The notes: generated by a model not told the origin, from the letters alone. A stretch of 64,000 nucleotides of DNA from Elusimicrobiota bacterium (GCA_051745145.1 JBNJDT010000005.1:1096-65095), one strand, 5' to 3'. Numbered from the stretch's first letter, positions 18,242-63,421 are shown. Translations and numbers: made by a program.

Positions 18242-18319
18242 GACCCCATAGTCTAGCTTGGTCCAGGACACTAGGTTTTCATCCTAGCAACAGGGGTTCA
18301 AATCCCCTTGGGGTCACCA
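18242..18319 (+). tRNA. tRNA-Glu (anticodon UUC), CCA encoded
   Basis: Cloverleaf read by eye: acceptor GACCCCA/TGGGGTC, D-arm GTCTAGCTTGGTCCAGGAC, anticodon stem-loop CTAGG-TTTTCAT-CCTAG, T-arm AGGGG-TTCAAAT-CCCCT, then A-CCA. Confidence 0.85.
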
Positions 18320-18414
18320 AATTTATTTTTTACAATAGAATCTTTCCTTAATTTTTATTACATAGATCAAATTATTTATTTAAATTGTTTTTGTAGACAC
18401 AAGAAGGGATTATT

Positions 18415-40824: not shown

Positions 40825-41385
40825 AGTAAAAGAATGCATGATAAAAGAGGTAATGACCGCCAAAAGAGGAACTCCTCTCAATGAGATAATAAAGTTTTTT
40901 AAGGAAAAGCACGTTCATGTTTTGCCGGTAGTAGACAAAGAAGACCGGCTTGTGGGAGCGGTCTCTTTAAATGAAATTACAACTGTATTCGAACCTCATT
41001 CCGCCAAGATGAATAAACTTATGGAGGGAATACCTTTTGTCGATTCAGTTGAAGATAATGAACTCGATCTTGATTATATTACTCCGGAGATGGGTATTCT
41101 TGTAATAGCGGATGAAATAAAGACGGATAGATATCTGTCGGTTCGGCCCGATGATTCAATTTCTAAGGCCTATTCGGTTATGAAGAAAAATAAGACAAAA
41201 TTTTTGATGGTCACCGATGAGCAGGGCCGCTTAAAGGGAGTGCTGGGCATGTTTGATATAGTGTATTTTCTGTTTAAAAATAAAGGTGTTATTCAGTGAC
41301 ACTAAATGTCCTGTTCTCTATAGGAATAATATTTTTAACCGGGGTAATCGGGGCTACTTTAATAAAATATTTAAAATTGCCAAAT
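40815..41385 (+). repeat. Upstream copy of a ~570-bp near-identical direct repeat (Shine-Dalgarno + whole CBS gene + first ~27 codons of the antiporter)
   Basis: Matches 42882..43452 with a single mismatch (GACACTAAAT vs GACTCTAAAT). Identity breaks down after AATAAAATA. Confidence 0.85.
40817..41299 (+). CDS. CBS-domain pair protein (copy 1)
   Basis: Two CBS motifs, 160 aa. GTG start with a GGGAGG Shine-Dalgarno. Overlaps the downstream antiporter. Confidence 0.8.
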   Translation: MFKVKECMIKEVMTAKRGTPLNEIIKFFKEKHVHVLPVVDKEDRLVGAVSLNEITTVFEPHSAKMNKLMEGIPFVDSVEDNELDLDYITPEMGILVIADEIKTDRYLSVRPDDSISKAYSVMKKNKTKFLMVTDEQGRLKGVLGMFDIVYFLFKNKGVIQ

Positions 41386-42881: not shown

Positions 42882-43452
42882 GAGTGTTTAAAGTAAAAGA
42901 ATGCATGATAAAAGAGGTAATGACCGCCAAAAGAGGAACTCCTCTCAATGAGATAATAAAGTTTTTTAAGGAAAAGCACGTTCATGTTTTGCCGGTAGTA
43001 GACAAAGAAGACCGGCTTGTGGGAGCGGTCTCTTTAAATGAAATTACAACTGTATTCGAACCTCATTCCGCCAAGATGAATAAACTTATGGAGGGAATAC
43101 CTTTTGTCGATTCAGTTGAAGATAATGAACTCGATCTTGATTATATTACTCCGGAGATGGGTATTCTTGTAATAGCGGATGAAATAAAGACGGATAGATA
43201 TCTGTCGGTTCGGCCCGATGATTCAATTTCTAAGGCCTATTCGGTTATGAAGAAAAATAAGACAAAATTTTTGATGGTCACCGATGAGCAGGGCCGCTTA
43301 AAGGGAGTGCTGGGCATGTTTGATATAGTGTATTTTCTGTTTAAAAATAAAGGTGTTATTCAGTGACTCTAAATGTCCTGTTCTCTATAGGAATAATATT
43401 TTTAACCGGGGTAATCGGGGCTACTTTAATAAAATACCTCAAGATGCCCAAT
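42882..43452 (+). repeat. Downstream copy of the ~570-bp near-identical direct repeat
   Basis: See 40815..41385. Confidence 0.85.
42884..43366 (+). CDS. CBS-domain pair protein (copy 2; 100% amino-acid identity to copy 1)
   Basis: The 160-aa translation is identical to that of 40817..41299. Confidence 0.8.
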   Translation: MFKVKECMIKEVMTAKRGTPLNEIIKFFKEKHVHVLPVVDKEDRLVGAVSLNEITTVFEPHSAKMNKLMEGIPFVDSVEDNELDLDYITPEMGILVIADEIKTDRYLSVRPDDSISKAYSVMKKNKTKFLMVTDEQGRLKGVLGMFDIVYFLFKNKGVIQ

Positions 43453-44550
43453 ATAACCTCTTATCTTCTGGTGGGTATATTAATCGGTCCCGAAATTTTT
43501 AATCTTATTCCCGGTGAGCTTTTGAATTCGGCCCACTTGTTTACAAATATAGCTTTGAGTTTTATAGCTTTTGATTTAGGACAGAACTTCACCCTTAAAA
43601 AATTGAGGAATATTGGCCGGGAAGTAGCCTGGATTACAGTGGCTCAGATTATTTTTTCATTTCTTCTGGTGGGGTTGGGTATGTATTTTATAGTAGGAAC
43701 GGAAATGCATATTGCCATATTACTGGGAGCGATAGCTACGGCAACTGCCCCGATAGCTGTTATAATGGTAATAAGGGAGTATAAAGCCAGGGGGAATTTT
43801 ACCGATACACTGCTGGGGGTAGTGGCTCTAGATGATGGCGGTGGGATAATAATGTTTGCTGTTTTTCTGGCAGTGGCCCGGGGTATGACTATGGTCGGGG
43901 AAACTCTGGGAACTTTGATAACTACCGGTTTTATTGAAGCTTCTGTTGAGATAGGCGGAGCGGTATTACTGGGAATTATTTTAGGAGTATTGTTTGCTAA
44001 TTTCCCTAAATTTATCGACAGTTCTATAAGTATACTTATATATATACTGGGATTTGTTTTAATTAACACCGGGATATCACAGCATTTTGGTTTTTCTGTA
44101 CTGCTTGCCAATATGTCTATGGGGATATATTTGGCCAATCAGTCGGGAACTGAATACAGATTTTTTGAAACTTTAAATGAGATAGAGCCACCTTTTTATT
44201 TGTTGTTTTTTGTTCTGGCCGGTGCTGAACTTCAGTTTGGGATGCTTAAACATCTTCCTCTGGCAGCGGGAGTATATTTTATTACCCGTTTTACGGGAAA
44301 AATACTCGGCTCCTATCTGGGAGCAGTAGCGGTGTCGGCGAGAGATGAAGTAAAAAAATACCTGGGAATGGCTCTAGCTCCTCAGGCCGGTGTGGCCATA
44401 GGTTTTGCACTGATAGTGAAGAGTACTTTTAAAGGGATAGGTGGAGAAGAAGTGTTTTTTATAATAATTGCCACTACAATTTTAAATGAAATTTTCGGCC
44501 CGGTATTTACAAAAATAGCTCTTCAAAAGTCCGGAGAAACTAAAGTTTAA
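43363..44550 (+). CDS. CPA2-family cation/H+ antiporter (copy 2; diverged paralog, ~65% identical to copy 1)
   Basis: The first 27 aa match copy 1 (one substitution). The remainder is diverged throughout but clearly homologous. Confidence 0.85.
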   Translation: MTLNVLFSIGIIFLTGVIGATLIKYLKMPNITSYLLVGILIGPEIFNLIPGELLNSAHLFTNIALSFIAFDLGQNFTLKKLRNIGREVAWITVAQIIFSFLLVGLGMYFIVGTEMHIAILLGAIATATAPIAVIMVIREYKARGNFTDTLLGVVALDDGGGIIMFAVFLAVARGMTMVGETLGTLITTGFIEASVEIGGAVLLGIILGVLFANFPKFIDSSISILIYILGFVLINTGISQHFGFSVLLANMSMGIYLANQSGTEYRFFETLNEIEPPFYLLFFVLAGAELQFGMLKHLPLAAGVYFITRFTGKILGSYLGAVAVSARDEVKKYLGMALAPQAGVAIGFALIVKSTFKGIGGEEVFFIIIATTILNEIFGPVFTKIALQKSGETKV

Positions 44551-49353: not shown

Positions 49354-49549
49354 ATAATAGTTTTAACTATAACCGTATTTAGTAAAAAAGTTCTTAAAAT
49401 ACCCAATTTAAATTGCATTGATCGTTATTTTCTAAAATAGTTTAAATTTGTGACTAAAAAATATTTTACTTTTCCTCTAAATTTAGTATAATAAATTTTA
49501 AATTTAGAATTAAAATATAAGACTTCAAAGCCGTTGAATTTATAAAGGT

Positions 49550-49627
49550 GGGGTGGTAGTTCAGATTGGTAAGAACGCCGGCCTGTCAAGCCGGAGGCCG
49601 CGAGTTCAAGTCTCGTCCACCCCGCCA
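49550..49627 (+). tRNA. tRNA-Asp (anticodon GUC), CCA encoded
   Basis: Acceptor GGGGTGG/CCACCCC, D-arm GTTCAGATTGGTAAGAAC, anticodon stem-loop CCGGC-CTGTCAA-GCCGG, T-arm GCGAG-TTCAAGT-CTCGT, then G-CCA. Confidence 0.85.
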
Positions 49628-49678: not shown

Positions 49679-52600
49679 ATGAATAAAGAAAAAAAAGAAA
49701 CAAAAAATTACAAAGTTGTCCTGGAAGCCCGTAAAGATGCTCGTAAAAGATTACTGGATGCCCTTGACGAATTTGACCCCCAGGAGGATTCTGAAAGAAT
49801 AGAAAAAGTAAAACAGACCCTAGTCCAGATAAACAAAGAGATAAAAGAACTTCAGAAAAAAACAAGTAATTCGGAGCAAAATACCTCAAAATCCGGTCCC
49901 CGGGCCGACCAGCCTAGTCCTTCCGACCAAGAAGAAGAGAAAGAAAAAGAGGAAACTGAAAAATCAGAGAAGAGCATTGAAGAGATAGATAATTCCCGGA
50001 AAACTCTTCAGTCTGAAGTCAAGGATTTGAAAAACGATATATCCAGTGAAAGAGATAAATGGGAAGAAAAATTATCAGCTAAACAAAGAGAGATAAATGC
50101 TCTTAAATCAAAGATGAATCTCCGCCAGGCCAAGCTCCGGGCCCAGTATCAGTTGAAGAAGCAGAATCTGGAGAGGACCCGTTCGGAATATGAAAAAAAA
50201 TTAAAGCAGGAAAGAGAGAAAGACACCTCTTTTGATCAGGAACGACAGCGATGGTCCAAACGTCTGGAAGAAAAGCAGCGAATTATAGATAAATTAAAAA
50301 TTGAAATTTCTTCAATGGAAAATAGATATCATCAGGATATTGAAGAAATCAGGGATGAGTACAGCCGTGAAAAAGAAGCCCTTCAGGAGAGAGTTAAAAA
50401 CCTCCAAAACCAGAAAAATCGGGAGACTGAACAGCTGCGGTCCAGATTATCTGAAAAACAACGCGCTATTATAAATTTAGAACAGGAACTGGATACAAAA
50501 GAAGCAGATTATGAAAGGGCCCGCCATAATCATTTAAAAGAGATTGAATCTTTAAAAGAAGATTTTAGCAGTGAAAAAGAGAGCATAAGAGAGGAAAAAG
50601 AGTCAAGTATAGATGAGTTAAAGAATGAGATTTCTTTTAAGGAAAAAGAGATCCGTAATTTAAAACAGGAAATTTCTGTAATTGAAGAAAAGAGAAAAAT
50701 AGCCCGGGAGGAATTTGAAGATCAATTAGAAAAATTAAGGCAGTCACAGAACGAAGAGACAAAAAAATTAGATAAAAAAATAGAGAATAAGAATAATTTA
50801 ATACAGCAGTTAAAAGATGAAATAGCGGATATAAAAAGAGACCATTCTATTAAGTTAAATAATTTAAATAATAAAAATGAACAGAAAAAAAATGAACTTA
50901 AACAAAAAATCCGGGACCGGGAAGAAAAAATAGAAAAAGTACGCGAAAAATTTTCTACCCAAAAAACGGAGCATGAGAAAAAAGTAATAAATCTAGAAAA
51001 TGTAATTGATAAAAAAGTTGAGCAGTTAGGTAATGTAACCGATAAAAAAGATAAAGAAATTCAGAATTACAAAGCCCGCCTGGAAGAGATAAAAGAAAAA
51101 TTTTTCGGAATGCAGAGAGAATACGAAAAAATTAAGACTGAAAAAGAAAAGGAAAAAGAAAAATTTGAATCTCAAATAGAAAGTTTAAAAGAAAATGCGG
51201 TTTTGGAAAAGGAAAATCTGCTTGAAAAAATAACTCAAAAAGAAGATAAAATTGGCCAGCTTAATAACGAACTGGAAACCGCCGACCAGCAGCGGGAAGA
51301 TTTGCAAAATAAATATAAAAGAAAACAGGCTAACTTAAAAGAAAGCCTGGCTGATAGAGAAAAAGAGATTGAAAGAATAGCCTCGAAAAAAGAGGAACAG
51401 AAAAAAGAATATCAGGATTATTTAGCGGACTTAAAGGAAAAGTTAGCCGAAGAAAAGAGAAAAACAGATGATTTAAAAAGGGAAAAGAGACAGGTAAAAG
51501 AAGAATTATCGTCAAAAATAAAAAACTTAAACAGTACTAAAGAACTGGAAAAGAAAAATCTCCGGGAAAAAATTAAAAGTAAAAACCGAAAGATAATTGA
51601 AATTGACAATGAATTGGAAAAGGCAAAAGACAGTAATAAAAATTTACAAAAAGATTGGAACCGGGAAAGGGAGAACTTAAAACAGGATTTTAACCAGAAA
51701 CTCACTGAGAAAGATAAACGTATTGAAGAACTTTCAGAATTAGTAGATAGTTTTGAAAATAAATTTAATGTAGAAAAGACAAAGAGAAAAGAAGAAAATA
51801 AAAACTGGGCCAGTAAAACCGGAAATCTGCAGCAAAAGATAAATGAACTCAATGACAATTTAAATACAGCTCAAAATAAGATAGAGCAGTTAGAGCAGAA
51901 AAAAGAGCAGCAGGCTGATCAATTTGAATCCCAAAGAGAAAATTGGGAAAGCAGCATGGAAACTATTAGATCCCGTCTTCACGAAACAGAGGTCGAGTAT
52001 TCGACTAAAGTAGAGGGTCTAAAAGAGAAAATAAACGGACTTAATAAAGAACGGGTCCAGATAACCGACAAATATAACAGCCGGGTTCAGGAACTTGAAA
52101 AACAGTTAAATAATCGGGATAATGATATAGCTCTACTTAAGCAGGAGCACAATCGGGAAAAAGAGAATATCCTTAAAAACTTAAGAAAAGCTGATGAGAG
52201 GTATGAAAAAATAAAAGAAGAATTTTATGCTTCTCGCGATAAAATAAAAGAGATGGCAGGTTCTAATGAAAAGTTAAAAGAACAGCTTGAAGATACTCAA
52301 GCTAAACTGGAAGAGATTAAAACAGAGAAAGATAATACAATCCAGAAATTAAAAGAAGAGCTTGAAGAACAAGAATATAAAGATGAACTTTTACAGAAAA
52401 GGTATAATAAGTTAAAAGCAGATTTTAAGAACAAAGAAGAAAGTTACAGTAAAACAATAAATAAATTAAAAAATAAATTAACTAAAAAAACCTGGGAGGT
52501 AAATAAAGTGCGTGAGGAATTAGAGAGTTTACTTGATGAATTTGAGGAAAGAGTAACAACCCAGCGAAGGATCTGGGAAGAGAAATTAAAAAATAAAGAA

Positions 52601-53713
52601 GAACAGTTAAAATCCATAAAAGAAGAAGCTCAAAATACAAAAGCCAGTTTGGAAGAAAGAATTAATGAATTAAAAGATTCTAATTGGAAACTCCAGGTGC
52701 AGATTGAAGAAGACAGGAAAGCCTGGCGGGAAGATTATGAACAGAAAGAGCAGGAATACCGGAAGCTCAAAAAAGCAAAGGAAGAAAAAGAGCAGCAGCT
52801 TCGCGAAAAGTTAGCTGAAAAGGAGAGTAGCTGGGTAAACCAGAAAAGTGAACTTCAAAAAAAGATAAATCATTTAGAAGGGAAATTGGAAAGTAAAATT
52901 CCGGCTAAGGATGAACAGATAGATAGATTAAAAGAAGAGCTTGCTCAAACTAAAGCCACTCTTGAGAAAAAAGAAAACTATTATGATGAAAAGATAAATA
53001 CCATTAAAGAAGAGATGGATGATAAGCTTTCTCAAATGAATGAAACCTTAAAAGTACTTGAAGAAAAGAATATTGATTTACGTTCTAAAATTTCTGATAG
53101 AGAATCCAAACTTAAAACTCAAAAAAGTGAGTTTGAGAATGAAATTAAGATACTAAAAGACAAGTTTGAAACAAATATTAGTAAATTACAGGCGGAATTA
53201 GCCCGCCAGCAAAAAGAGAATAAAGAGCTCAAAGAATTACTGGATAAAAAAGAGAGAAAACTCCAAAGCGAGGAGGAAATCAAAAAAGAAGAAGTGGGGC
53301 AGATAAGAACCCGGTTAGAAAAAAATATTGAAGATTTCCGTATGAAGATGAAGGAGATAGAGGATAACAATAAACCTTCCGAATACGAAATCGAAGAGTA
53401 TTTAGAAGAGGTAGAAGCTGAAGAAAGGGATGAGGAAAATTCTACCTCAAAAGATCCTGAACCGGAAGAAGATGAAGAAGAATTAGAGGAAGAATTGTCT
53501 GTAAAACAGCAAATTCAAAATAAAAAAAACGAATTAAAAGAATTAAAAAAGAAGACCAAGAAAAAAATAAAGAAAAAGGAAAAAGAGTTTAAAAAAGCAA
53601 CCAGTAAAAAAGAAAAAGATAAGATCAAAGAAGAATTAATAGAACTTGAACAAAAAAGTAGGCAGCGGGAAAAAGCAATTAAAGAAAAGTTGTCGAAATT
53701 AAAGAAGAAATAG
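49679..53713 (+). CDS. Giant coiled-coil protein 1 (1344 aa), E/K/R/L/Q-rich, with no recognizable enzymatic domain
   Basis: Begins MNKEKKETKNYK (the ORF-track start at 49553 runs through the tRNA and is spurious). After a short Pro/Ser-containing N-terminal patch it is almost free of Gly/Pro/Cys. Heptad-like charged sequence with recurring W-x-E-K/R-L motifs. Poly-K C-terminus. Confidence 0.7.
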   Translation: MNKEKKETKNYKVVLEARKDARKRLLDALDEFDPQEDSERIEKVKQTLVQINKEIKELQKKTSNSEQNTSKSGPRADQPSPSDQEEEKEKEETEKSEKSIEEIDNSRKTLQSEVKDLKNDISSERDKWEEKLSAKQREINALKSKMNLRQAKLRAQYQLKKQNLERTRSEYEKKLKQEREKDTSFDQERQRWSKRLEEKQRIIDKLKIEISSMENRYHQDIEEIRDEYSREKEALQERVKNLQNQKNRETEQLRSRLSEKQRAIINLEQELDTKEADYERARHNHLKEIESLKEDFSSEKESIREEKESSIDELKNEISFKEKEIRNLKQEISVIEEKRKIAREEFEDQLEKLRQSQNEETKKLDKKIENKNNLIQQLKDEIADIKRDHSIKLNNLNNKNEQKKNELKQKIRDREEKIEKVREKFSTQKTEHEKKVINLENVIDKKVEQLGNVTDKKDKEIQNYKARLEEIKEKFFGMQREYEKIKTEKEKEKEKFESQIESLKENAVLEKENLLEKITQKEDKIGQLNNELETADQQREDLQNKYKRKQANLKESLADREKEIERIASKKEEQKKEYQDYLADLKEKLAEEKRKTDDLKREKRQVKEELSSKIKNLNSTKELEKKNLREKIKSKNRKIIEIDNELEKAKDSNKNLQKDWNRERENLKQDFNQKLTEKDKRIEELSELVDSFENKFNVEKTKRKEENKNWASKTGNLQQKINELNDNLNTAQNKIEQLEQKKEQQADQFESQRENWESSMETIRSRLHETEVEYSTKVEGLKEKINGLNKERVQITDKYNSRVQELEKQLNNRDNDIALLKQEHNREKENILKNLRKADERYEKIKEEFYASRDKIKEMAGSNEKLKEQLEDTQAKLEEIKTEKDNTIQKLKEELEEQEYKDELLQKRYNKLKADFKNKEESYSKTINKLKNKLTKKTWEVNKVREELESLLDEFEERVTTQRRIWEEKLKNKEEQLKSIKEEAQNTKASLEERINELKDSNWKLQVQIEEDRKAWREDYEQKEQEYRKLKKAKEEKEQQLREKLAEKESSWVNQKSELQKKINHLEGKLESKIPAKDEQIDRLKEELAQTKATLEKKENYYDEKINTIKEEMDDKLSQMNETLKVLEEKNIDLRSKISDRESKLKTQKSEFENEIKILKDKFETNISKLQAELARQQKENKELKELLDKKERKLQSEEEIKKEEVGQIRTRLEKNIEDFRMKMKEIEDNNKPSEYEIEEYLEEVEAEERDEENSTSKDPEPEEDEEELEEELSVKQQIQNKKNELKELKKKTKKKIKKKEKEFKKATSKKEKDKIKEELIELEQKSRQREKAIKEKLSKLKKK

Positions 53714-53724
53714 ATTAACAGGAT

Positions 53725-56700
53725 ATGTCCAGAGAAGAACTTAGAAAACAAGTAGAAAAATTAAGAGAAAGGCTACGCCGGGAAGAAAAGAAACGCCGGC
53801 AGCTGCTCCGCGAGAAAGAAAAAGAAAATTTTGAGCTAAAACAGAATTACGAAAAGAGAAAAAATGAGCTGGAAAATAAGATAGCTGATTTAAAGAATAA
53901 AATAGAGCACCTGGATAGCCGGAAAAAGACCGAATTGAAAAAGCAGCAGCAGGCCTATAATGATAAGATAACTGCCAAAGAGAAAGAAGTTGAACAGCTC
54001 AGGAGAGAAAAAACTCAGCTTGCCAGAAAAGATAAATTAAAATTTAAGCAGCACCAATCCGATGCCGAACAGAAGATAAACGAGCTAAAAAGAAAAAAGA
54101 GAGAACTTAAAACTCAAATTGAAGAACAAAAATCAAAATTTTCCGATTTTCAGGACAGATTGGAAGCAGAAAAACAGCAGCTTAAACACGAGAAAGAGTT
54201 AACCAGGACAGATTTACAAAAAGAAAAGGCGATTTTATCTCAGGAATATCGGGAGAAAGAAGAGGAATACAACCGGAAGATAAGAGAATTAAGCAGCAGA
54301 GTGGATTTTTTAGAGGAAAAACTTGAAGATAAAAAAGAAACACTCAAAAGAGAAGTTAGTGCCCGGGATGCCGAAATAAATGCTTTAAGGGAAGAAAAAA
54401 AGAGTGAAATACAGAGATTAAACAATAGAATAAATGAGAAAAACCGTCAGAAAGAAGAACTTCTAAGTGAACTTGAAGAAGTTAAAAAAAGATATCATGA
54501 TGAGATAGATTCAAAGATTAGTGAAAATAAAGTTTTAGAATCCCAACTTACATTAAAAGAAGAAGAGCTTACCGAAAAAATCCGTCAAAAAAACAATAAA
54601 ATAGAAAGCCTAACCCAAGAGATAAACAGTTTGAAAAGAGAAACTGATGATAAAATAAGAAATCTGGAGAATATCCGGTCTAAAGAAAAAGAAGAATACG
54701 AAAACCGCATAAGTCGTTTGAATTTTGAAATTGAAAGTTTGAATGAGAAAATTGAGAAGACAAATGAGATGCGGGAGGTAGAGAATAAAAACTGGCGGGA
54801 AAAGATTGAACAGCTGCAGAATGATCATTCTGTAGAGATAGCCAGAAGGGATATAGAAGAAGAGGAAAGAGAAAGCGAATACAGATCCCAGATAACCGAA
54901 TTAAAAAATAAGTTGAAACAGGTTGATAAAAGTCTCGAACAGTTAGAAGATGAAAAACAGGATTTAAAAGATGAAACCCGAAAAAGAATAGCCGATAAAC
55001 AGGATAAAATAGATAATTTAGAAAGAACAATAGAAAAGTTAAAATCCGAGAAAGAAGATCAGCGAAAAAGAAAAGAAGCCCAAATAGATCGCATTAAAGA
55101 AGATCTGGAAGCCAAACTTGAAAACTACAAAGAACTTAGCGCCGAAGAAAGCAGGGATCTTAAGGGTAAACTTGAGCGGGTAAAAGAAGAGAAAAATAAT
55201 CTCCAGCTGGAGAAAGATAAGCAGATTGAGTCTCTTAATCAAAAATTAAGAGCTAAGATCGAAGAGCTTGATAATTTCAGGGAAGTTTCTGCAAATAAAG
55301 AGGCCAAGTGGCGGGAAAGACTCCAGGAAGTCAAACAGGAAAAAAATATAACGGAAGATGAAAAAGAAGAAAAAGAGAAACAGCTTGAAAACCTGCGGAA
55401 TCGTCTGGACCGGGAAACAAGAGAGATGGCCGAAGAACTGGAAAAAAAGAAAGAACACTGGGAATGGCTTGTCTCTCAGAAACAGAATGAAATACAGAAT
55501 TTAAAAGATAAGTATCGCAGTGAGATACATAAGATAAAAGAGGAGTATCAGGATAAAGAGCAGAAGTTAAAAGCAGCCCGCGCCGGACTGGAAAAATCCG
55601 TTAAAGAATTAAGTGACCGGATGGAGTCCGAGCGGTCGGAAAAATATGAAGAATTAAAAGAAAAAGACGAAAAAATTCAGAATTTGAAAAGTCGACTCGA
55701 ATCCCAGCGAGTCGAGCTGAAACAGAAGTATAAAGACGAATACAACGAACTTGAAAAGCGCCGGACTAACTTAAGTCAAAAGGTAAATGAGCTGGAAAAT
55801 AAGCTGCATGCTCAAAGAGAAACCTGGCAGGAACGGCTGCAAACTAAAGAGAGGGAACTGGAAGATGCCCGGCAAAATATGAAGGACAGGGAAGAAGAGC
55901 TTTACAATGTCTGGCGGGAAAAAAGAAAAGCTAATAATAAAAGAATTTTTGAGTTATCCAATAAAATTGAAGAACTGGAGGAGAAAAAGAAAAGAGAAAA
56001 CCGGGAATTAGAAGAAAAATTAGAACGACAAAAAGAAAAAAATCGCGAGAACAATATAGAGAACATCCGCCGCGAGAAAGAAATTGAGACAGAGTATAGA
56101 GAAAAGATAAACAGTCTTATCAGAGAAAAAGATAAATTAAAGAATGACAATAGTGTGTTAAAAGAGAAATTAAATTCGGAAAGAATAAAATCTTTTAGAA
56201 AGTTACGGGAAAAATCTGAAGAAATAGAAAAGATCCGGGATAAGGCCCGCAGTGACAGCGAGCAAATATATAATGATTACAAAGAAAAGGAAAAGGAATT
56301 GCGGGAGACTCAGAATAGGCTGGATGACCTCCGGTTTAAGAAAAACAGGGAGATAAAAGAATTAAACCGCAAATTACAGGAAAAGGAAAGTGAAAAAACC
56401 CGTCTGCTTAATGAAATAGAGCATTTTGAAGAAGATAAAAAAAGAGTTATCCGGAGAAGGCAGGAAGATTTTGAGAGGGATAAGAAACTGCTGCGCAATG
56501 AACTTGAAAGATTAAAAAATAAGAAAGATGAACTGTATGAAAAATTGGAGCAAAAAGAAAATAGACAGAATGAAAAGATAAATAATTTAATGCAGGAATT
56601 CCAGGAAAAAGAAGATAACTTAATAAATAATTTTGCACAAAAAGAGAAGAAACTCGTCGGGAAAATATCTAACCTGGAGGATGAACTTAATCAGGCAAAC

Positions 56701-58584
56701 CGGAAGCTTTCTAACGCCCGGCAGGATTTGGCTAGAAAAGAAAATCAGGTAAGAAAAGAGATAAGCTCCGATTTTGAGAATAAAATTTATAAATTAAAGT
56801 TAGATAAAGCTTTGGCAGAAAATGAGCTGGAATGGGTCCGTAAAAAGATGTATTCGGAAAGGAAGAAATGGGAAGAAGAGCTGGAAGAAAAGAAAGAAAA
56901 AAACCGTAAACTTAAATCTTCTGTTTCCGAGCGGATGACCCAGTTAGAGGAAGAATACGATCAGCGGTTTATGGATTTAAATCGGCGCAAGGAACGGCTG
57001 GAGAGGGAAAAAGAAGAAAAAAGAAATAAGTTTGAACAGATAAAAACAGAATATAGGGATAAAATCGATAGCCTTCAGGAAAAGCTTCAGTTGCAGCGCC
57101 AGGAATATCAAGATAAAATTCAGCAGACCCGGCGTGAGCAGCAGCAAAGTCTTTCTGAATCTACGCAGATAAGGAGAAAATTAGAATTTAAAGTTGAATC
57201 TCTTCAGGAAAAACTTAGTTCTGAAGAAGAAAATAAAGAAGAGCTGGAGACGAAACTGGAAAATTACCGGGTTCAAAATTCTGAACTTGAACAGAAAATC
57301 AGCAAAGAACAACAAAATTATGAGCAAAAGATAATGCAGTTGAAAACTGAATTACAGGCTAAAGATACCGAATTAGAGCAGAAAATTGTTAAATTTCAGG
57401 CCCGTGCCTCACAAGAGAAAGCCAGATTGGAAGAGGAATTTAAGCGCAAAGAGAAGAACCTTAGAAATGAAATAGAAGAAAAAAGGAATAAGCTTGTTGC
57501 TAAAGAGGATGAACTTAAAAGATTAAAAGAAGAAATTAAGCGCCGTGAAGAAGGAGAGTCTCAGGAACTGGATCTGGCAAGACAGAAAGTTCGGATGTGG
57601 GAAGAAAAAGAAGAAGAACTTAAGTCCACTATTGAAAATTTAAAGGAAGAGGTTTATAAATCCAGGGAAAAGGAAAGCAAAGCCCGGATGGAAGCAGATA
57701 TGTTAAAAGAGAACCGGGAAAGAGAAATAAATTCCTGGAAAGAAGAAGTCCGGCTTTTAAAAAATTCTCATCAGGAAGAGAAAGAGATGCTTCTCGAAGA
57801 GCGGGAGAGATTAAAGGACGAGATTAACAATATAAAAGGGGATAAGGGATATTTAAGTCAAACCATAACTCAAAAAGAAGAGAAGATTAATGAGTTATCC
57901 AGGAATTTAGAGCAGCTTCAAACTTCCTATCGGGATAAGATTGAAAAAAAAGAAGAAGAATTAAAGGAGCTTAGAAATTCAAAAGAAAAAGAGATAGAAA
58001 GATTAGAAATAGAATATGAAAAAAAGATTCAACAGTTAAACGTAGAACAACAGAAAAAACTGGATGCCCAGGATGCTCACTGGCAGGAAAGGTATTCAAA
58101 CAGAGAACACGAGTTATTGAGTTCTAAAAATCAAGTACAGGAAAAACTTGAGGAATTAAGAAAAGAAAAATTAAGCAGTGAGAGACAATGGGATGTCAGG
58201 TTAAAAGAAAAAGAAGAAGAATTACAGAGAATTCAACTGGAAAAAGCCCAGAATGAATCGTACTATAATAAACAGCTGAATAAAGCTAAAAAACGGCTTA
58301 ATAACTTGATAGCAAAATATAAGAGTATAAAAGAAAATTTAAAAGATAAACAGGAAGAAAACAGGGAACTTAGAGCTCAGATGGCCCAGAGAGATATTCA
58401 ATGGAAGACTGCTTACCGGAATAAAAGAATAGAAGTTAAAAAACTAATGTTTAAATTAGAGCAGAGCCGTAAAAGCAAAATATCAAAATTTTTACAGAAA
58501 ATAACCGGTAAGAAAAAGCAAAAAGAAGAGAATCTTGATAATGAGATTGAAAAAATCAGAAAAACAAATAATATAACTAATTAA
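53725..58584 (+). CDS. Giant coiled-coil protein 2 (1619 aa), paralogous in composition to protein 1
   Basis: Starts 11 nt after gene 1. Same E/K/R/Q/L-dominated helical low-complexity sequence with recurring W-x-E/R-K/R-L motifs. No TM segment, signal peptide or NTP-binding motif. Confidence 0.7.
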   Translation: MSREELRKQVEKLRERLRREEKKRRQLLREKEKENFELKQNYEKRKNELENKIADLKNKIEHLDSRKKTELKKQQQAYNDKITAKEKEVEQLRREKTQLARKDKLKFKQHQSDAEQKINELKRKKRELKTQIEEQKSKFSDFQDRLEAEKQQLKHEKELTRTDLQKEKAILSQEYREKEEEYNRKIRELSSRVDFLEEKLEDKKETLKREVSARDAEINALREEKKSEIQRLNNRINEKNRQKEELLSELEEVKKRYHDEIDSKISENKVLESQLTLKEEELTEKIRQKNNKIESLTQEINSLKRETDDKIRNLENIRSKEKEEYENRISRLNFEIESLNEKIEKTNEMREVENKNWREKIEQLQNDHSVEIARRDIEEEERESEYRSQITELKNKLKQVDKSLEQLEDEKQDLKDETRKRIADKQDKIDNLERTIEKLKSEKEDQRKRKEAQIDRIKEDLEAKLENYKELSAEESRDLKGKLERVKEEKNNLQLEKDKQIESLNQKLRAKIEELDNFREVSANKEAKWRERLQEVKQEKNITEDEKEEKEKQLENLRNRLDRETREMAEELEKKKEHWEWLVSQKQNEIQNLKDKYRSEIHKIKEEYQDKEQKLKAARAGLEKSVKELSDRMESERSEKYEELKEKDEKIQNLKSRLESQRVELKQKYKDEYNELEKRRTNLSQKVNELENKLHAQRETWQERLQTKERELEDARQNMKDREEELYNVWREKRKANNKRIFELSNKIEELEEKKKRENRELEEKLERQKEKNRENNIENIRREKEIETEYREKINSLIREKDKLKNDNSVLKEKLNSERIKSFRKLREKSEEIEKIRDKARSDSEQIYNDYKEKEKELRETQNRLDDLRFKKNREIKELNRKLQEKESEKTRLLNEIEHFEEDKKRVIRRRQEDFERDKKLLRNELERLKNKKDELYEKLEQKENRQNEKINNLMQEFQEKEDNLINNFAQKEKKLVGKISNLEDELNQANRKLSNARQDLARKENQVRKEISSDFENKIYKLKLDKALAENELEWVRKKMYSERKKWEEELEEKKEKNRKLKSSVSERMTQLEEEYDQRFMDLNRRKERLEREKEEKRNKFEQIKTEYRDKIDSLQEKLQLQRQEYQDKIQQTRREQQQSLSESTQIRRKLEFKVESLQEKLSSEEENKEELETKLENYRVQNSELEQKISKEQQNYEQKIMQLKTELQAKDTELEQKIVKFQARASQEKARLEEEFKRKEKNLRNEIEEKRNKLVAKEDELKRLKEEIKRREEGESQELDLARQKVRMWEEKEEELKSTIENLKEEVYKSREKESKARMEADMLKENREREINSWKEEVRLLKNSHQEEKEMLLEERERLKDEINNIKGDKGYLSQTITQKEEKINELSRNLEQLQTSYRDKIEKKEEELKELRNSKEKEIERLEIEYEKKIQQLNVEQQKKLDAQDAHWQERYSNREHELLSSKNQVQEKLEELRKEKLSSERQWDVRLKEKEEELQRIQLEKAQNESYYNKQLNKAKKRLNNLIAKYKSIKENLKDKQEENRELRAQMAQRDIQWKTAYRNKRIEVKKLMFKLEQSRKSKISKFLQKITGKKKQKEENLDNEIEKIRKTNNITN

Positions 58585-58615: not shown

Positions 58616-60796
58616 ATGAAAAAGATTTTAAATATAATTTTTAAACCCAAAAAAGGAGTTCAAGAAATTCTTGAAACAGAACCGATATTTTCCGGTTTAT
58701 TTATTTTTATCCTTTCGGTAATAGCAGGGAACTTTAATTTAATGAAAAATATAGCAGAACCGGGAATTTCTATTGCCCTTTATCATATTTTTATTGTAAT
58801 TTTATTGTGGGCCGGTGTTCTTAGCATTGTTAACTTACTAATAACGGGGATTATTAAAATGTTAACCACTTTTTCTTCCGGAATTTTGACCGGCGAAAGA
58901 TTTAGAAAATTATTTATAGCAGAATTATATATTTCTGTTATTTTAATTTTACGGCCCCTGTTTGCGATATTTATATCAAATAAACTTGCCTGGATTATTC
59001 TATTTATATGGGGAGTAACTTTAATTTTACTAAGTATAATTTCACTGTGGAATATTACAGAGATAAAGGGTGCTCTGGTTTTAGGCACTTCACTATTGAT
59101 TGTATTTCTGGGATACCGTTTTATAAAAGAGGAAAGAGAATATATTGATGACGGGGATTTCAAAGTATTCATAGAAGATATTGATAAAACTTTACCGGCG
59201 GAAAATGTAGAATTACTGGGCTTTAAAAATAGCGATTCAGAAAACTATGATTATAAAGAGTTAGTTGATACTCTGGATACATTTACAGATAAATATCCCG
59301 AATCTCCGGTCCTTCCTTATGCCCTATTGATTAAGGGCAGAATTAAGCATTTTAAGGGCGAAATTAAACAGGCAGAGAAATCTTACAAAAAAATTTTAAA
59401 ATACGATAAGTTGCCTTCCAATATTAAAAATACGGTATTGCTGAATTTAAAAGATATGCTGAGTAAACAGGAATATATGGAGCTTCCCTTAAGTAATACG
59501 GCTTTAAAATGGAAGGATAATTTAAGGATAATGGGATTTCCTCAAAATTTTGCCTATTACCGCGGAAATATAAGAACAGTTTATACTGTAAATAAATTTA
59601 TCGATTCCCGGGAAACTTTTAAATCTTCTACTACATTGAGTGCTGTTATCTCCAATATAAAAGGCACAGAATTTGAAGACGACATACACTTTAAAGTTGC
59701 GCAAAAACTTACCCAGAAAGAGGACTCTGCCGGAGCAGAGGAATATTTTAACAAGGCTATTCAGTCCGGCACCCGGGCAAGTAAAAATAGAATAAGGGTT
59801 GAGTCTGTAATAAATTATATAGAGCAGCGCACCGGCCTGGATATGCTGACTGAAAAATTTACCCCCCCGTTTGCCTTGCTCCAAAAAGCAAAGTTTTTAA
59901 AGGAAAAAGGAAATACAAAAGAGGCCGCAGCTGCTTACCGGGAGTTATTAAACCGGTTTTCGGAGCATATTCTGGGAAGTGAAGCTTTGATGGAACTGGC
60001 TAAGATAGCGGAGGAAGAAGGGGAATTTAAACAGGCAGCTTTACATTACCGTACTTTGCTGTCTAAATATCCTCTGAGTCATTTGCGGCAAAAGGCGGTT
60101 CATAAGAAAATATTAATTGACCATAACTTAGATAAACCGGATCTGCTGTATTCTTACAGCCGGGCCTGGAAAAAATGGCAGCAGGAAGAATACGGGGAAG
60201 CGATAAAAATTTACAGGAGTCTAATTGAAAAATTTCCCGATTCAGAAGTAGCTTATGAACTTCAATTTAATATTGGGAAGTATTACAAAAATAATGGTGA
60301 TTATATGGAGGCGCTTTCTGATTTCAGGGCCGGATACCGTAAATTTAAAGACACTCCCCGGGGTTTTGATTTTGGATGTCAGGTAGGCGAGATATTGCAT
60401 GAGAATCTTAAATATTACCGACGCGCTGTTAATTGGTATAAAGCTTTAAGTAAAGAATATGAAGCCGGTTATCAATCGCCGTTGAGCGGGCTTGAGAATA
60501 TAGATATTATGTGGACAGCCGCTGATATATGTAAAGAAAAACTCAGGGATTACAATGAAGCCAAAAATATTTACTATGATGTACAGGAAAGATTTAATGA
60601 TCCTAATATAGTTGCCCGCGCTCTTTATAATATAGCCTGGATCGATGAAAATATATATAATGATTATGCTTCGGCTGTAGGAAATTACCAAAAATTAACT
60701 GCCGAATATGCAGACTTAGAATGGGGGAGCAAAGCGAAAAAGGAACTGGAAAATATCCACAACCGCGGTGTCCGTTTGCTTGAACGGTATAGATAA
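58616..60796 (+). CDS. Yip1-like polytopic membrane domain fused to a long TPR-repeat domain
   Basis: The N-terminal ~170 aa carry 5 TM helices of Yip1/DUF1282 type. The C-terminal ~550 aa are TPR-like repeats rich in Y/A/L/K/E. Confidence 0.55.
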   Translation: MKKILNIIFKPKKGVQEILETEPIFSGLFIFILSVIAGNFNLMKNIAEPGISIALYHIFIVILLWAGVLSIVNLLITGIIKMLTTFSSGILTGERFRKLFIAELYISVILILRPLFAIFISNKLAWIILFIWGVTLILLSIISLWNITEIKGALVLGTSLLIVFLGYRFIKEEREYIDDGDFKVFIEDIDKTLPAENVELLGFKNSDSENYDYKELVDTLDTFTDKYPESPVLPYALLIKGRIKHFKGEIKQAEKSYKKILKYDKLPSNIKNTVLLNLKDMLSKQEYMELPLSNTALKWKDNLRIMGFPQNFAYYRGNIRTVYTVNKFIDSRETFKSSTTLSAVISNIKGTEFEDDIHFKVAQKLTQKEDSAGAEEYFNKAIQSGTRASKNRIRVESVINYIEQRTGLDMLTEKFTPPFALLQKAKFLKEKGNTKEAAAAYRELLNRFSEHILGSEALMELAKIAEEEGEFKQAALHYRTLLSKYPLSHLRQKAVHKKILIDHNLDKPDLLYSYSRAWKKWQQEEYGEAIKIYRSLIEKFPDSEVAYELQFNIGKYYKNNGDYMEALSDFRAGYRKFKDTPRGFDFGCQVGEILHENLKYYRRAVNWYKALSKEYEAGYQSPLSGLENIDIMWTAADICKEKLRDYNEAKNIYYDVQERFNDPNIVARALYNIAWIDENIYNDYASAVGNYQKLTAEYADLEWGSKAKKELENIHNRGVRLLERYR

Positions 60797-60811: not shown

Positions 60812-61468
60812 GTGTCTTCGGTAATAGCGGTAAGAAATGTTTTCTGGCGCCCCTCCGGACCGTATGCCCGGGAAATACTTAAAAATATAAGTATAGATAT
60901 TAAAGAGGGGGATTTTGTAATTTTACGGGGCCCGGCCTGTTCCGGTAAAACCAGTCTATTAAAAACAATATACGGCGACTTATCTCCTTCCTCCGGAATA
61001 GTGGCATTTAAAAACAGGAACTATGAAAACACTTCTAAAAAAGAATTGAAGAATATAAAGAAAAACATAGCTTTCTGTACAGAATTTCCTAAGTTTATAG
61101 ATACTGCCTCTCTATTTGAAAATCTAAAATTCATATTAAAGTTAAAAAAGATACCTGAAGAGATTGTGTTTGACAAGATTATACATATTTTAAAACTAAC
61201 TAATTTAATTTCTATCAGGGATATTACGCCAGATAAATTATCATCTACAGAGAGAAAATTATTTTCACTGGCCCTGGAGTTAATAAAAGAAAAAGAAATA
61301 TTTCTGTGTGATTTTAATCTTTCCGGCCATAGTGACACGCAGATTATTGATATACTTAAGAGTATTTCTTACAGGGAGGGAGCGGTGGTAATTACTGCCA
61401 AAGAAGATGTGAAATTTAAAGCTATGAATATAAAATATATAAATATGGATAATGGATACATTAAGTAA
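60812..61468 (+). CDS. ftsE: FtsE-like ABC ATPase with degenerate catalytic motifs
   Basis: Walker A GPACSGKTS. Signature-like LSSTERKLFSLA. Walker B IFLCDFN (catalytic Glu replaced by Phe). No H-loop His. 218 aa, followed by ftsX and envC. Confidence 0.6.
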   Translation: MSSVIAVRNVFWRPSGPYAREILKNISIDIKEGDFVILRGPACSGKTSLLKTIYGDLSPSSGIVAFKNRNYENTSKKELKNIKKNIAFCTEFPKFIDTASLFENLKFILKLKKIPEEIVFDKIIHILKLTNLISIRDITPDKLSSTERKLFSLALELIKEKEIFLCDFNLSGHSDTQIIDILKSISYREGAVVITAKEDVKFKAMNIKYINMDNGYIK

Positions 61469-62249
61469 ATTATTAACTGGTTTTTTAATTGTACTGGGAG
61501 GGATAGCTTTAAGGAGCTTTTTAATCGCTGATGAAATAGACAGTTATTTTGAAGATAAATTATTAGCCCCCTTAAGCATAGCTGTTTATATGGAAGAAGA
61601 AATTTCAGAAAAAGCAACCGATTCTATAAGGAAAGAGATAAAAAAATACGGAATTATTTTTGAAAAAAACTTCTATTCATCGCAAGAAATTTACAGTAAT
61701 TTAAAGGAAGATCCCCAGGTCAAGCATCAACTTAGTTTAGTCGGTGAAGATTTTTTATTTCCCCCTACTTTGGAATTAGGAGTTAATAAGTTGTCTTTTG
61801 AAAAACTTAATAAAATTTTAAAACAGTTATCTAAACAGGAGTTTATAAAAAGAATAGATGCCCCAAAAGAGTTGTTCAGGGTAACGGAAAGGCTGGGTAA
61901 ACGCATGAAGCAGGGTTTACTTGTAGCTAAGTGGTTAAGTCTTATAACGGCTTTAATCCTTTTTAGCGCAGGCACCTATATTTATTATGATACTTTTGAA
62001 CCGGAAATATTATTTGGTCTGGAAAATGATTTTAAATTTTTTCGGATAATCCGTCCGGTACTTAAAGATATTTTATTTTACGGAATTTTAGCCGGAATTT
62101 CGGGAGCCTTTTTTTGGGATTATTTTTCCACCGAGCTTGATATTGAAATAATAACCGGGCCCCGGGAAGTTTTGATTTTAACGGCGGGGACGTTATTATT
62201 GTCCTTTATTTTCTTTATAATAAACACTCAATTGAGAATTGAGGTATGA
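61452..62249 (+). CDS. ftsX: FtsX-like cell-division permease
   Basis: N-terminal TM segment, a ~130-aa extracytoplasmic domain, then three C-terminal TM segments. 265 aa. Overlaps the ftsE-like gene. Confidence 0.6.
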   Translation: MDTLSKLLTGFLIVLGGIALRSFLIADEIDSYFEDKLLAPLSIAVYMEEEISEKATDSIRKEIKKYGIIFEKNFYSSQEIYSNLKEDPQVKHQLSLVGEDFLFPPTLELGVNKLSFEKLNKILKQLSKQEFIKRIDAPKELFRVTERLGKRMKQGLLVAKWLSLITALILFSAGTYIYYDTFEPEILFGLENDFKFFRIIRPVLKDILFYGILAGISGAFFWDYFSTELDIEIITGPREVLILTAGTLLLSFIFFIINTQLRIEV

Positions 62250-63421
62250 ATTTTAAAAAAACAGGAATTATTTTTACGGGACTGATACCCGTTCTTTTTT
62301 TAAGTACAGTTTTTGCGGCCCCCCCGGAGAAGATAAAAAAGACCCAGAATAAAATAGAAACTCAGGAAAGCCAGCTCCTGCAGCTCAATAAAGAAATAGA
62401 AAAATATGAAAGAAATTTAAGGGAATTAACTGACCGGGAAAATGAATTATTCGGTAAGATAAACAGTATAAAAGAAAATTTAAAACAGCAGAGCAAAAAG
62501 TTAAATGAGACAAAAATTAAGATAGCAGATGTAAAGAAAAAAATAGATAAACTTAATAAAAATTTGGTCCAGGCCCGGGAGGAGGGTAAGAAATACAGTA
62601 AATATTTAAAAGATTCATTAAAATTTTACTATTATAAAAATTTTAGTGAAAAAATGTTGCCGTGGTACAGCAGTTATCTGGGAGCGGATAAAAATTTTTG
62701 CTATTACGCCGGAGAATTAGTAAAAGCCCCGGCCCAAAAATATACCGGTATCCAGAAAAAAATCCAGGAAATAAGTAATTTAACCCGGGACCTTGAAAAA
62801 GAAAATAATAATCTGGTAAAATTAAAAGAAACGCAGTTAAGTATGCAAAAAAAATATCAGTCCCGGAGAGAGGAACAGCTTGAAATTTTAAAAAAGGTTA
62901 AAGCCCGCCGGGAAAATCAGAAAAATGAGATTCAAAACCTGAAGGAAGAAAGAAAAGAGCTTAAAAATTTAATAACCTCCCTAAAAAAAGAAGTTAAAAA
63001 TCTGGAGAGGTTAGAACATTTATCCCAGTATTTAGTGGAAGCGAAAGGAGAGCTTCCCTGGCCGGTAAAGGGAGAAGTTGTCTCCCGGTTCGGCAAGCAG
63101 CAACACCCCCGGTTAGATACGTATATATATAACCGGGGAATTAAAATAGAAGTTTCCGAAAGCAGGGAAGTCAAATCCGTGGCCGCCGGCGAAGTCGTTT
63201 TTGCCGATGAATTTCAGGGAAGAGGGAAAATGATAGTTGTGGATCACGGAGAAGATTACTATTCTATATACGGGGATTTAGGCGACATAGACGTGGGGGT
63301 GGGAATAGAGCTGAAACCATTAACTGTTTTGGGTTCTACAGGAAATTCTCCCCTGTATTTTGAAATAGGAAAGGGGTCTACTCCTGAAAATCCCCTGGAC
63401 TGGCTGGAGAGAAAAAAATAA
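62246..63421 (+). CDS. envC: Coiled-coil M23-peptidase-domain protein (EnvC-like murein hydrolase activator)
   Basis: Signal peptide, a long coiled coil, and a C-terminal LytM/M23 domain (VVDHGEDYYSIYGDL...LGSTGNSPLYFEI). Confidence 0.8.
   Translation: MNFKKTGIIFTGLIPVLFLSTVFAAPPEKIKKTQNKIETQESQLLQLNKEIEKYERNLRELTDRENELFGKINSIKENLKQQSKKLNETKIKIADVKKKIDKLNKNLVQAREEGKKYSKYLKDSLKFYYYKNFSEKMLPWYSSYLGADKNFCYYAGELVKAPAQKYTGIQKKIQEISNLTRDLEKENNNLVKLKETQLSMQKKYQSRREEQLEILKKVKARRENQKNEIQNLKEERKELKNLITSLKKEVKNLERLEHLSQYLVEAKGELPWPVKGEVVSRFGKQQHPRLDTYIYNRGIKIEVSESREVKSVAAGEVVFADEFQGRGKMIVVDHGEDYYSIYGDLGDIDVGVGIELKPLTVLGSTGNSPLYFEIGKGSTPENPLDWLERKK

Follow-up and report, generated by a model that had tools for sequence, protein, structure and literature searches.

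Two adjacent genes in a 64,000-nucleotide stretch of DNA from an Elusimicrobiota bacterium (GCA_051745145.1, JBNJDT010000005.1:1096-65095; this whole stretch is called the window, and positions are counted from its first letter) encode giant proteins, p1 (1344 residues) and p2 (1619 residues), which we take with high confidence to be structural coiled-coil rods without catalytic function. They are uncharacterised bacterial coiled-coil structural proteins of one lineage and display two unusual properties: a hydrophobic seam of non-heptad period whose phase is kept over more than 1000 residues, and a block of approximately 1300 residues whose length is constant across deep divergence.

The p1 gene (49679..53713) is separated by 11 bp from the p2 gene (53725..58584), both on the + strand. 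A sequence-only reading of this DNA, made by a model, had described two such open reading frames (ORFs), rich in Glu and Lys and with few Gly, Pro or Cys, and their coordinates, sizes and spacing are confirmed. p1 is composed of a head, a linker, a rod, an acidic linker and a basic tail, and p2 is headless, its rod beginning at residue 2. A longer mechanical ORF for p1 starts from GTG 49553; that start falls within a tRNA-Asp (GTC) gene (49550..49627, + strand) located directly 5' of p1, and ATG 49679 is equivalent to the start in all p1 orthologs. Glu, Lys and Leu make up 19.3%, 18.6% and 9.2% of p1, which contains 10 Gly, 8 Pro and no Cys; p2 comprises 20.4% Glu, 16.6% Lys, 10.4% Leu and 9.6% Arg, with 7 Gly and neither Pro nor Cys. 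The longest run free of Gly and Pro extends over 369 residues in p1 and 480 residues in p2.

No catalytic or export signature was detected in either protein. A search for the Walker A motif ([AG]xxxxGK[ST]) in p1 and p2 returned nothing, neither protein has a transmembrane (TM) segment or signal peptide (the highest 19-residue Kyte-Doolittle window is at or below 0.0), and neither carries a lipobox or a recognisable C-terminal secretion domain. The absence of signal peptide, TM segment and Walker motif claimed by the sequence-only reading is therefore borne out by motif scan, hydropathy and domain searches. The profile searches that it had called for, run against Pfam and NCBIfam and extended to PHROGs, PADLOC and PDB sequences, gave no family above threshold, and the only sub-threshold matches correspond to the coiled-coil arms of SMC, Rad50 and JetC, with scores at about a tenth of the family cutoffs or lower. 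The SMC models reach 35-59 bits where 567-729 are required (58.6 and 35.5 bits for TIGR02168, cutoff 567), with match regions restricted to the coiled-coil arms, and the Pfam families SMC_N and AAA_23 match neither protein. With no Walker A motif and SMC models so far under their cutoffs, the earlier statement that the proteins are not SMC/RecN-like holds.

The coiled-coil nature of the rods was assessed with a periodogram of hydrophobic residues, in which power is expressed in multiples of the variance and the EnvC-like coiled coil encoded in the window serves as a heptad control. The seam peaks at 3.565 residues per turn in p1 (power 89x variance) and at 3.5825 in p2 (114x variance); for these two proteins the power is about 1-1.6 at 3.50 and about 2.3-2.5 at 11/3. 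Over the eleven orthologs analysed, the peaks fall at 3.565-3.575 for p1 and 3.58-3.5825 for p2, with a power of 36-114, whereas the power is only 0.4-2.4 at 3.50, the canonical heptad period of tropomyosin and the myosin rod, and about 1-2.5 at 11/3. The EnvC-like control peaks at 3.48, so that heptads, where they occur, are reported by the method. Over residues 1-1311 of p2 the seam phase shifts by about 127 degrees overall (standard deviation 24 degrees), and over residues 97-1250 of p1 it is kept within about 120 degrees; as loops or hairpins would randomise the phase, each rod carries one unbroken stripe. After correction for the slow drift, 59-74% of the positions in the central 60 degrees of the stripe are hydrophobic, a share that drops to 40-46% in the adjoining 30 degrees to either side, to at most 13% beyond +/-60 degrees and to at most 9% across the half of the helix facing away from the stripe. 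The seam is bordered by basic residues, and of the 19 Trp in the two rods, 15 are found no more than 60 degrees from the seam centre. Such a profile marks a coiled coil and not a helix of the seamless ER/K single alpha-helix (SAH) class, from which the clear hydrophobic seam separates both proteins.

A period of 3.57-3.58 rather than 3.50 implies that the seam is built of mixed heptads and hendecads (7 + 11 = 18, 25, 43, 61). Because this period is closer to that of the undistorted helix, coiled-coil theory indicates that supercoiling should be weak. AlphaFold2 (AF2) predicts continuous helices, with predicted local distance difference test (pLDDT) values of 86-90, in the two modelled parts (p1 1-240 and p2 1440-1619). 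The continuous alpha-helical coiled coil anticipated by the sequence-only reading is thus supported by both the seam and the AF2 helices, with the refinement that it is not heptad-based.

A Trp-centred motif recurs along both rods. W-x-[EDRKQN]-[KR]-[LIMV] occurs three to four times per protein versus 0.2-0.4 times in shuffles (P <= 0.007 in each of seven sequences), and the longer pattern E-R-x-x-W-x-E-K-L-x-x-K-E is enriched about ten-fold over shuffles in every ortholog; all six examples that the sequence-only reading had quoted are present. The strongest self-similarity lags (61, 18, 43 and 25 in p2; 50, 25, 18 and 7 in p1) are combinations of heptads and hendecads, and the 61-residue unit, equal to 17 turns, can be made, for example, of four heptads and three hendecads. 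The common ancestral repeat that had been suggested can accordingly be given a length: lag 61 tops the list in p2, and the Trp residues of a distant relative, P0010, are spaced by exactly 61 residues. On sequence grounds, the pattern of p1 and p2 is best described as derived from a degenerate 61-residue (17-turn) unit, E-R-x-x-W-x-E-K-L, with its Trp in the seam. A 172-residue super-repeat in p2 (W357, W529, W701) was considered and rejected, lag 172 having a z of 6.7 versus 11.5 for lag 61; these spacings arise because they are whole numbers of turns. An hhalign comparison places p1 S106 on p2 residue 2 and extends over 1081 columns (probability 98.5%, E 3e-15), scores that between coiled coils can be inflated by shared composition, and close to the start of the rod the L001 orthologs read DEREIWEEKL (p1) and DEQLAWNEKL (p2). 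The two proteins look like ancient paralogs.

P0010 (MCB4791983.1, 1854 residues, annotated 'tetratricopeptide repeat protein') belongs to Ca. Liberimonas magnetica, also an Elusimicrobiota, and its distant homology is indicated by phmmer (E 7e-4) and hhalign (probability 88%). Its Trp residues stand at 61, 122, 183, 244, 305, 366, 427 and 488, then at 825, 947 and 1069, giving eight exact 61-residue W-motif repeats and a period of 3.5875 (= 61/17) with a power of 124. In its locus (L007, JAJAPY010000010), a gene for a 608-residue FliG_M/FliG_C-tetratricopeptide repeat (TPR) protein (8006-9832) precedes P0010 (10001-15565), which is followed by a second W-motif coiled-coil gene (15589-19224) of 1211 residues containing near-identical 33-residue tandem repeats (ERTVWAEKLQAK...). 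P0010 thus resembles p1 and p2 in being a giant coiled coil with the same W motif and an adjoining second W-motif coiled-coil gene; it differs by its near-perfect 61-residue repeats and its C-terminal TPR domain, and its neighbourhood, unlike that of p1/p2, carries FliG_M/FliG_C-TPR and CHU_C proteins and no ftsEX. Being itself uncharacterised, it offers no functional anchor for p1 and p2. The presence of a FliG-domain protein beside giant coiled coils in this organism is odd, since the paper describing Ca. Liberimonas magnetica reports magnetotactic Elusimicrobiota without flagellar motility; that paper makes no mention of coiled-coil or TPR proteins.

The second unusual property is seen in p2, whose parts all lie on the + strand. 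Residues 1-1300 (53725..57624) form a length-conserved, charge-neutral rod which, at the 0.1485 nm per residue used for all rod lengths here, would measure about 193 nm if fully extended. In five full-length orthologs with 39-42% identity, columns 4-1300 (approximately 1297 residues) are free of gaps. Large indels then appear in the variable module that follows (residues 1301-1440, 57625..58044), where orthologs carry insertions of up to about 270 residues (in L001) and where the seam shows a phase excursion, after which the sequences re-converge on a highly conserved C-terminal rod (residues 1441-1582, 58045..58470; QLEKAQNES and MAQRDIQWKTAY motifs, invariant in 5-7 sequences) and on the C-terminal end. 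Invariant columns concentrate in the C-terminal 180 residues and in a central hub (residues 561-735, 55405..55929), where they are densest: their density reaches 0.40-0.50 in four 30-residue windows of the hub (residues 561-734), and the conserved elements comprise EMA-LE-K-EHWEWL-SQKQ-EI, an invariant G621, GLE-ELSD-ME-ER-KY and R-EE-LY-W-EK. Many of these positions are polar, pointing to specific contacts and not to generic packing.

The extreme C-terminus of p2 (58471..58581) contains a short amphipathic helix (residues 1585-1594, KISKFLQKIT), an invariant T-G and a basic KKK cluster. The AF2 model of residues 1440-1619 (pLDDT 90) shows a single helix up to residue 1582, then helix 1585-1594, flanked by helix breaks on both sides, the T-G and a basic helix. 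The pattern hydrophobic-hydrophobic-x-K/R-hydrophobic-hydrophobic-x-x-hydrophobic-T-G-x-x-K-K-K is conserved in seven orthologs, and this helix, with a hydrophobic moment of 0.42-0.68 versus a mean of 0.33 for p2, is the least polar segment of the protein. Together with the basic cluster it is a candidate membrane-targeting element, resembling the amphipathic membrane-targeting helices of MinD and FtsA.

p1, by comparison, is conserved mainly at its ends. Its head (residues 1-67, 49679..49879; all parts on the + strand) is a predicted helix-loop-helix bearing the motif ARKDARKRLL-AL-EFDP, invariant in four sequences, and is joined by a disordered Pro/Ser/Glu linker (residues 68-98, 49880..49972), variable in length and sequence among orthologs, to the rod (residues 99-1230, 49973..53368; about 168 nm if fully extended). 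In the AF2 model of residues 1-240 (pLDDT 86), helix 2-29, the loop DEFDPQED and helix 38-67 are followed by linker 68-89 and helix 90-239, with a pLDDT of about 90 over residues 11-60 and below 50 for residues 67-90. A Foldseek search of the head model against the PDB returned only generic helical hairpins and no significant match (E >= 0.49). Alignment of the p1 orthologs contains 31 gap runs; the conserved parts are the head, the start of the rod (99-230) and its end (930-1230), and the middle of the rod is indel-rich. The rod is charge-neutral (net +2) and gives way to an acidic, Pro-containing linker (residues 1231-1275, 53369..53503; net -20 over 45 residues), whose counterpart in orthologs is variable and Pro/Ala-rich, and then to a basic tail (residues 1276-1344, 53504..53710; net +19 over 69 residues), partly conserved in the L003 and L009 orthologs through an EKEKD-KKA motif. 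The poly-Lys tail that had been assigned to p1 is therefore real in being Lys-rich; it is not plain poly-Lys, being a conserved basic helical segment placed after the acidic linker.

Relatives of these proteins are rare, and no sequence identical to p2 is on record. A word-indexed search of 5.8 billion proteins retrieved a single full-length p2 ortholog (P0001, 40% identity, from an Elusimicrobiota metagenome-assembled genome (MAG)), and p2 residues 1-1200, run exhaustively with HMMER against 1.84 billion cluster representatives, gave six matches at E <= 1e-3: the full-length P0001 and P0006, the fragments P0007 and P0008, the distant relative P0010, and P0009, which was discarded as spurious, the match being an unrelated Ala-rich coiled-coil region (period 3.62) of a 1661-residue protein. 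Genome and metagenome scans added loci L003, L004, L010 and L011, and searches with the conserved ends added P0002-P0005. The p1 orthologs are thus those of L001, L003, L010, L006/P0002, L009 and L011, and the p2 orthologs P0001/L001, L003, L010, P0006/L009 and L004, with fragments P0003-5, P0007 and P0008. Every named source belongs to the Elusimicrobiota, and only a handful of metagenome-derived genomes carry the family. No literature linking Elusimicrobia to coiled-coil proteins of this kind was found.

Between the same genomes, FtsE is 34-40% identical, EnvC 35-44% and FtsX 22-30%. As the 39-42% identity of the p2 orthologs is as high as that of FtsE and EnvC, p1 and p2 are taken to be real genes maintained by purifying selection; coiled-coil composition as the sole constraint would not yield the conservation level of an ATPase. 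The p2 ortholog of L004 (JAIVZN010000124; 42% identity) lies on a 5.3-kb contig binned as 'Deltaproteobacteria' and is divided into two ORFs (92-3121 and 3118-4137), probably because of a low-coverage frameshift on a mis-binned Elusimicrobiota contig. In GCA_034723895.1 (L005/L006), the assembly breaks within both giant genes, the p1 N-terminus ending one contig and the p2 C-terminus another. Such breaks make it probable that the family is under-counted in short-read assemblies and protein catalogues.

The gene order around the pair is also conserved. One or both genes are present in six genomes or contigs, four of which hold the full order from tRNA-Asp to the envC-like gene, and the order common to all sufficiently long loci is FecCD, ABC, TonB-dependent receptor, tRNA-Asp(GTC), p1, p2, Yip1-like (with or without TPR), ftsE, ftsX, envC-like M23, S41 protease, Polysacc_deac_2 and tsaD. 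The check on conservation and synteny proposed by the sequence-only reading was run and is borne out, including the linkage to ftsE, ftsX and envC. The gap between p1 and p2 is 0-14 bp in the four loci holding the junction. The tRNA-Asp(GTC) gene lies directly 5' of p1 in all five loci covering that junction, with flanking proteins only about 35-45% identical, at a distance of 50-230 bp in L001 (5428-5505), L003 (3455-3532), L010 (9856-9933) and L006 (2566-2644). In the window, the best sigma-70-like promoter match (TTTACT-16-TATAAT, 49465..49492, + strand, a consensus match only) precedes the tRNA, and because of this position a single transcript may cover the tRNA and the giant genes; no terminator-like site was found on the + strand from this match to ftsE.

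Downstream of p2, again on the + strand, the window encodes a protein with a Yip1-like polytopic membrane domain (residues 1-175) and a TPR/CpoB(YbgF)-like domain (58616..60796; orthologs in L003 and L005), an ftsE-like ABC ATPase (60812..61468), found downstream of the pair in every long-enough locus, an ftsX-like gene with an FtsX_ECD domain (61452..62249) and an envC-like gene encoding a coiled coil and an M23 (LytM) domain (62246..63421). The first of these had been called a Yip1-TPR protein. Its TPR part passes the tol-pal YbgF/CpoB cutoff (91.1 versus 90.1 bits), which sustains that half of the name, and the Yip1 part is a sub-threshold match only (E 7.6e-4, 19.8 bits versus a cutoff of 28.6). 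In L010 the corresponding gene is limited to the membrane domain, which shares 38% identity with residues 1-177 of the window protein.

Based on the above data, we tentatively propose, at somewhat less than an even chance, that p1 and p2 are the parts of a cytoplasmic scaffold, specific to this lineage, that associates with the membrane and is linked to the division operon, a proposal built on architecture and synteny only. The helices of each protein would pair into long, weakly supercoiled rods of approximately 170 nm (p1) and 190-235 nm (p2). Homodimers would be more likely than a full-length in-register heterodimer, because p1 tolerates indels where p2 does not and because their periods differ (3.565 versus 3.5825), which amounts to a drift of about 1.5 turns over 1100 residues; such a heterodimer was judged unlikely on the same grounds. 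The two rods would probably co-assemble through their conserved ends and the central hub of p2, and the C-terminal helix and basic cluster of p2, together with the basic tail of p1, would keep the assembly on the inner side of the cytoplasmic membrane. There it might support, as scaffold or strut, the envelope and division machinery of the downstream genes, a role suggested by the operon partners, namely the Yip1-like/CpoB-like protein, FtsEX and the EnvC-like LytM factor. A bolder version, which we regard as speculative and improbable, would see in p1 and p2 a new type of cytoskeletal element: a membrane-anchored lattice or strut of near-straight coiled coils built on the 61-residue repeat, in which the ~193-nm p2 rod is a ruler that, with the Yip1-like/CpoB-like protein and FtsEX-EnvC, sets the width of the cell or the geometry of the division site. 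Ultrasmall Elusimicrobiota cells have a reported diameter comparable to this rod length.

Several observations weigh against the membrane-associated scaffold. Neither protein has a homolog of known function, and oligomeric state, strand orientation, homo- or hetero-pairing, membrane binding and filament formation are all properties that we infer. The spectral peaks for long-range charge periodicity in p1 and p2 all fall within the shuffled null, no preferred parallel or antiparallel axial stagger of the kind seen in myosin or intermediate filament (IF) rods was detected, and the p2 midpoint is not a centre of mirror symmetry in local periodicity; p1 and p2 thus lack the sequence signatures usual for staggered filament packing and for an SMC-like fold-back. 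That the pair lies beside ftsEX may be chance, L001 is without the Yip1-like gene, and in L009 a small gene (813-1124), encoding a 103-residue LexA-N-like winged helix-turn-helix protein, lies between p1 and p2. Lastly, P0007, an ENA metagenome fragment on a 1-kb contig that aligns to residues 990-1310 of the window p2, contains a 40-residue tandem duplication (NSERQRWQ...DYKEKL twice, near residue 1083) within the otherwise gap-free block, which is either a genuine variant or an assembly artefact of so short a contig.

Rather than polymerising, single p2 rods of fixed length (the ~193-nm block) could fix a spacing or link a partner to the membrane, p1 serving as the adaptor, without any filament. 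The approximately 1297 indel-free residues of p2 in five orthologs, set beside the variation of p1 and of the C-terminal third of p2, favour such a ruler or tether, as does the absence of any charge periodicity or stagger signal for lateral assembly, and the many invariant polar residues of the mid-rod hub and the conserved end suggest docking sites. We nevertheless consider it rather unlikely: the P0007 duplication falls inside the length-conserved block, no partner structure of matching size is known, and length conservation equally characterises rods that do form filaments, IF rod domains and tropomyosin among them. Distinctly unlikely, too, is a role on the chromosome, in which the rods would organise or segregate DNA in the manner of headless SMC/MukB arms or Scy-ParA-type organisers, with the p1 tail and the p2 end binding DNA. 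The net charge of the p1 tail, the winged helix-turn-helix gene between p1 and p2 in L009 and the fact that the sole database similarities, albeit sub-threshold, are to SMC, Rad50 and JetC arms would fit it. These matches reflect coiled-coil composition, however, given the distance between their scores and cutoffs above 560; p1 and p2 have no ATPase head, hinge or zinc hook, and the conserved neighbourhood carries envelope and division genes and is without kleisin, ParAB or other DNA-handling genes.

A secreted or surface fibril, such as an M-protein-like or tetrabrachion-like stalk or an adhesin using an unrecognised export route, is very improbable. Long non-heptad coiled coils are common in surface stalks, and P0010 is encoded near a CHU_C (type IX secretion system-type) protein in Ca. 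Liberimonas magnetica; against this, p1 and p2 have no signal peptide, TM segment, lipobox or recognisable C-terminal secretion domain, both of their ends are highly charged, and no secretion genes occur in their conserved neighbourhood. The chance that the genes are artefacts or selfish elements, whether low-complexity ORFs, misassemblies or genes carried by a mobile element or phage (a tape-measure protein, for instance), is negligible. The region has a slightly low GC (0.33-0.36) and an A-skew above that of the rest of the window, and related MAG assemblies break inside p1 and p2. The low GC and strong A-skew, however, follow from the codons for Lys, Glu and Asn; the p1/p2 DNA contains no long repeats, direct or tandem; order relative to housekeeping genes is kept in six genomes or contigs, with conservation like that of FtsE; and PHROGs and PADLOC gave nothing above coiled-coil noise (best matches E 3e-4 to 8e-5, 16-22 bits). 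The sequence-only reading had named an assembly artefact of low-complexity DNA as a possible objection, which falls given repeat-free DNA and orthologs of both genes, and the conservation data effectively refute this whole explanation.

Among known systems, those closest to the proposed scaffold in function and architecture would be the bacterial IF-like or coiled-coil-rich proteins (CCRPs), with which p1 and p2 share the class trait of a long coiled-coil rod devoid of enzymatic or nucleotide-binding domain. By analogy, Scy and FilP would be nearest in giant size and non-heptad repeat. The genes of Scy and FilP are neighbours, and the two proteins serve as scaffolds at the cell pole and the membrane. 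Like p1 and p2, they are long, enzyme-free bacterial coiled coils (about 1300 residues for Scy) whose non-heptad rods combine heptads and hendecads. The Scy repeat, however, has 51 residues per 14 turns (3.64 residues per turn), as opposed to 61/17, 43/12 or 25/7 (3.57-3.58) for p1 and p2, and the 3.64 period was found in none of the eleven p1/p2 orthologs (peaks 3.565-3.5825). p1 and p2 also have no detectable homology to Scy/FilP, belong to another phylum, contain no DivIVA-like N-terminal motif and reside in an ftsEX-envC context as opposed to the polarisome. The non-heptad repeat of Scy/FilP from Streptomyces was reportedly set out by Walshaw, Gillespie & Kelemen in 2010 (J Struct Biol 170:202, cited in PMC6599971).

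As an adjacent, interdependent pair, the nearest system would be ZicK/ZacK (Alr4504/Alr4505) of Anabaena sp. PCC 7120, whose adjacent coiled-coil-rich genes encode a nucleotide-free, obligate heteropolymer; the two proteins depend on each other and affect cell shape (bioRxiv 10.1101/553073). They constitute the best precedent for an adjacent CCRP pair acting as one heteromeric system and have no sequence relation to p1 and p2, whose co-assembly we infer. Crescentin and IF rods recall the head-rod-tail layout of p1, the conserved rod length of p2 and coiled coils interrupted by stutters; they are, however, heptad-dominated and linker-divided rods of about 300-400 residues, as opposed to a continuous seam of 1100-1580 residues, and p1 and p2 show neither a Pfam Filament or crescentin-like match nor an IF-like charge periodicity. 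The SMC, MukB and Rad50 arms, source of the weak database matches, are likewise long and irregular coiled coils. Unlike them, p1 and p2 possess no Walker A/B heads, hinge or hook, or mid-protein break of the seam: at the centre of p2 no hinge or zinc hook was found, with no Cys, no non-helical segment, and a seam continuous in phase and amplitude. An SMC-like hairpin or antiparallel dyad at the p2 midpoint was also rejected, as neither the mirror test nor a charge-complementarity scan gave a central signal (best centres 273 and 333, z <= 2.9, within noise).

The remaining classes fare no better. Spectrin/EzrA-like bundles of approximately 106-residue units are represented by no Pfam match and no periodic helix breaks, and the Trp residues follow the 61-residue unit; no signal peptide, anchor or secretion domain of an M-protein-like surface fibril is present; and no PHROG tape-measure protein is matched, the neighbourhood consisting of chromosomal housekeeping genes in six genomes or contigs. 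Pfam, NCBIfam, PDB and the exhaustive HMMER search gave no homology to any characterised IF-like or CCRP member and led only to uncharacterised Elusimicrobiota proteins. Judged from their sequences, p1 and p2 are members by homology of none of the characterised families tested.

Other features of the window concern the organism more broadly. An ORF at 23448-24737, downstream of BamA (19562-21829), joins LpxC (UDP-3-O-acyl-GlcNAc deacetylase) to a FabA/FabZ-like dehydratase, which, together with BamA, is consistent with a diderm, lipopolysaccharide-producing organism. The ATPase A and B subunits encoded at 2730-6070 (ATP-synt_ab, V/A-type C-terminal domain) are of the V/A type and not of the F type. 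At 40817-42483 and 42884-44550, 5' of the iron-uptake genes, two consecutive gene pairs, each encoding 160 and 395 residues with 4-bp overlaps, look like a tandem duplication of a two-gene module.

If the membrane-associated scaffold is correct, a phylum-specific family would join the short list of bacterial coiled-coil cytoskeletal systems, and a coiled-coil system would be tied to the septal machinery of FtsEX-EnvC in a phylum that is little studied and for the most part uncultured. Whatever their function, p1 and p2 provide a rare natural example of a long, in-phase seam, of use to coiled-coil theory and to the design of rigid rods.

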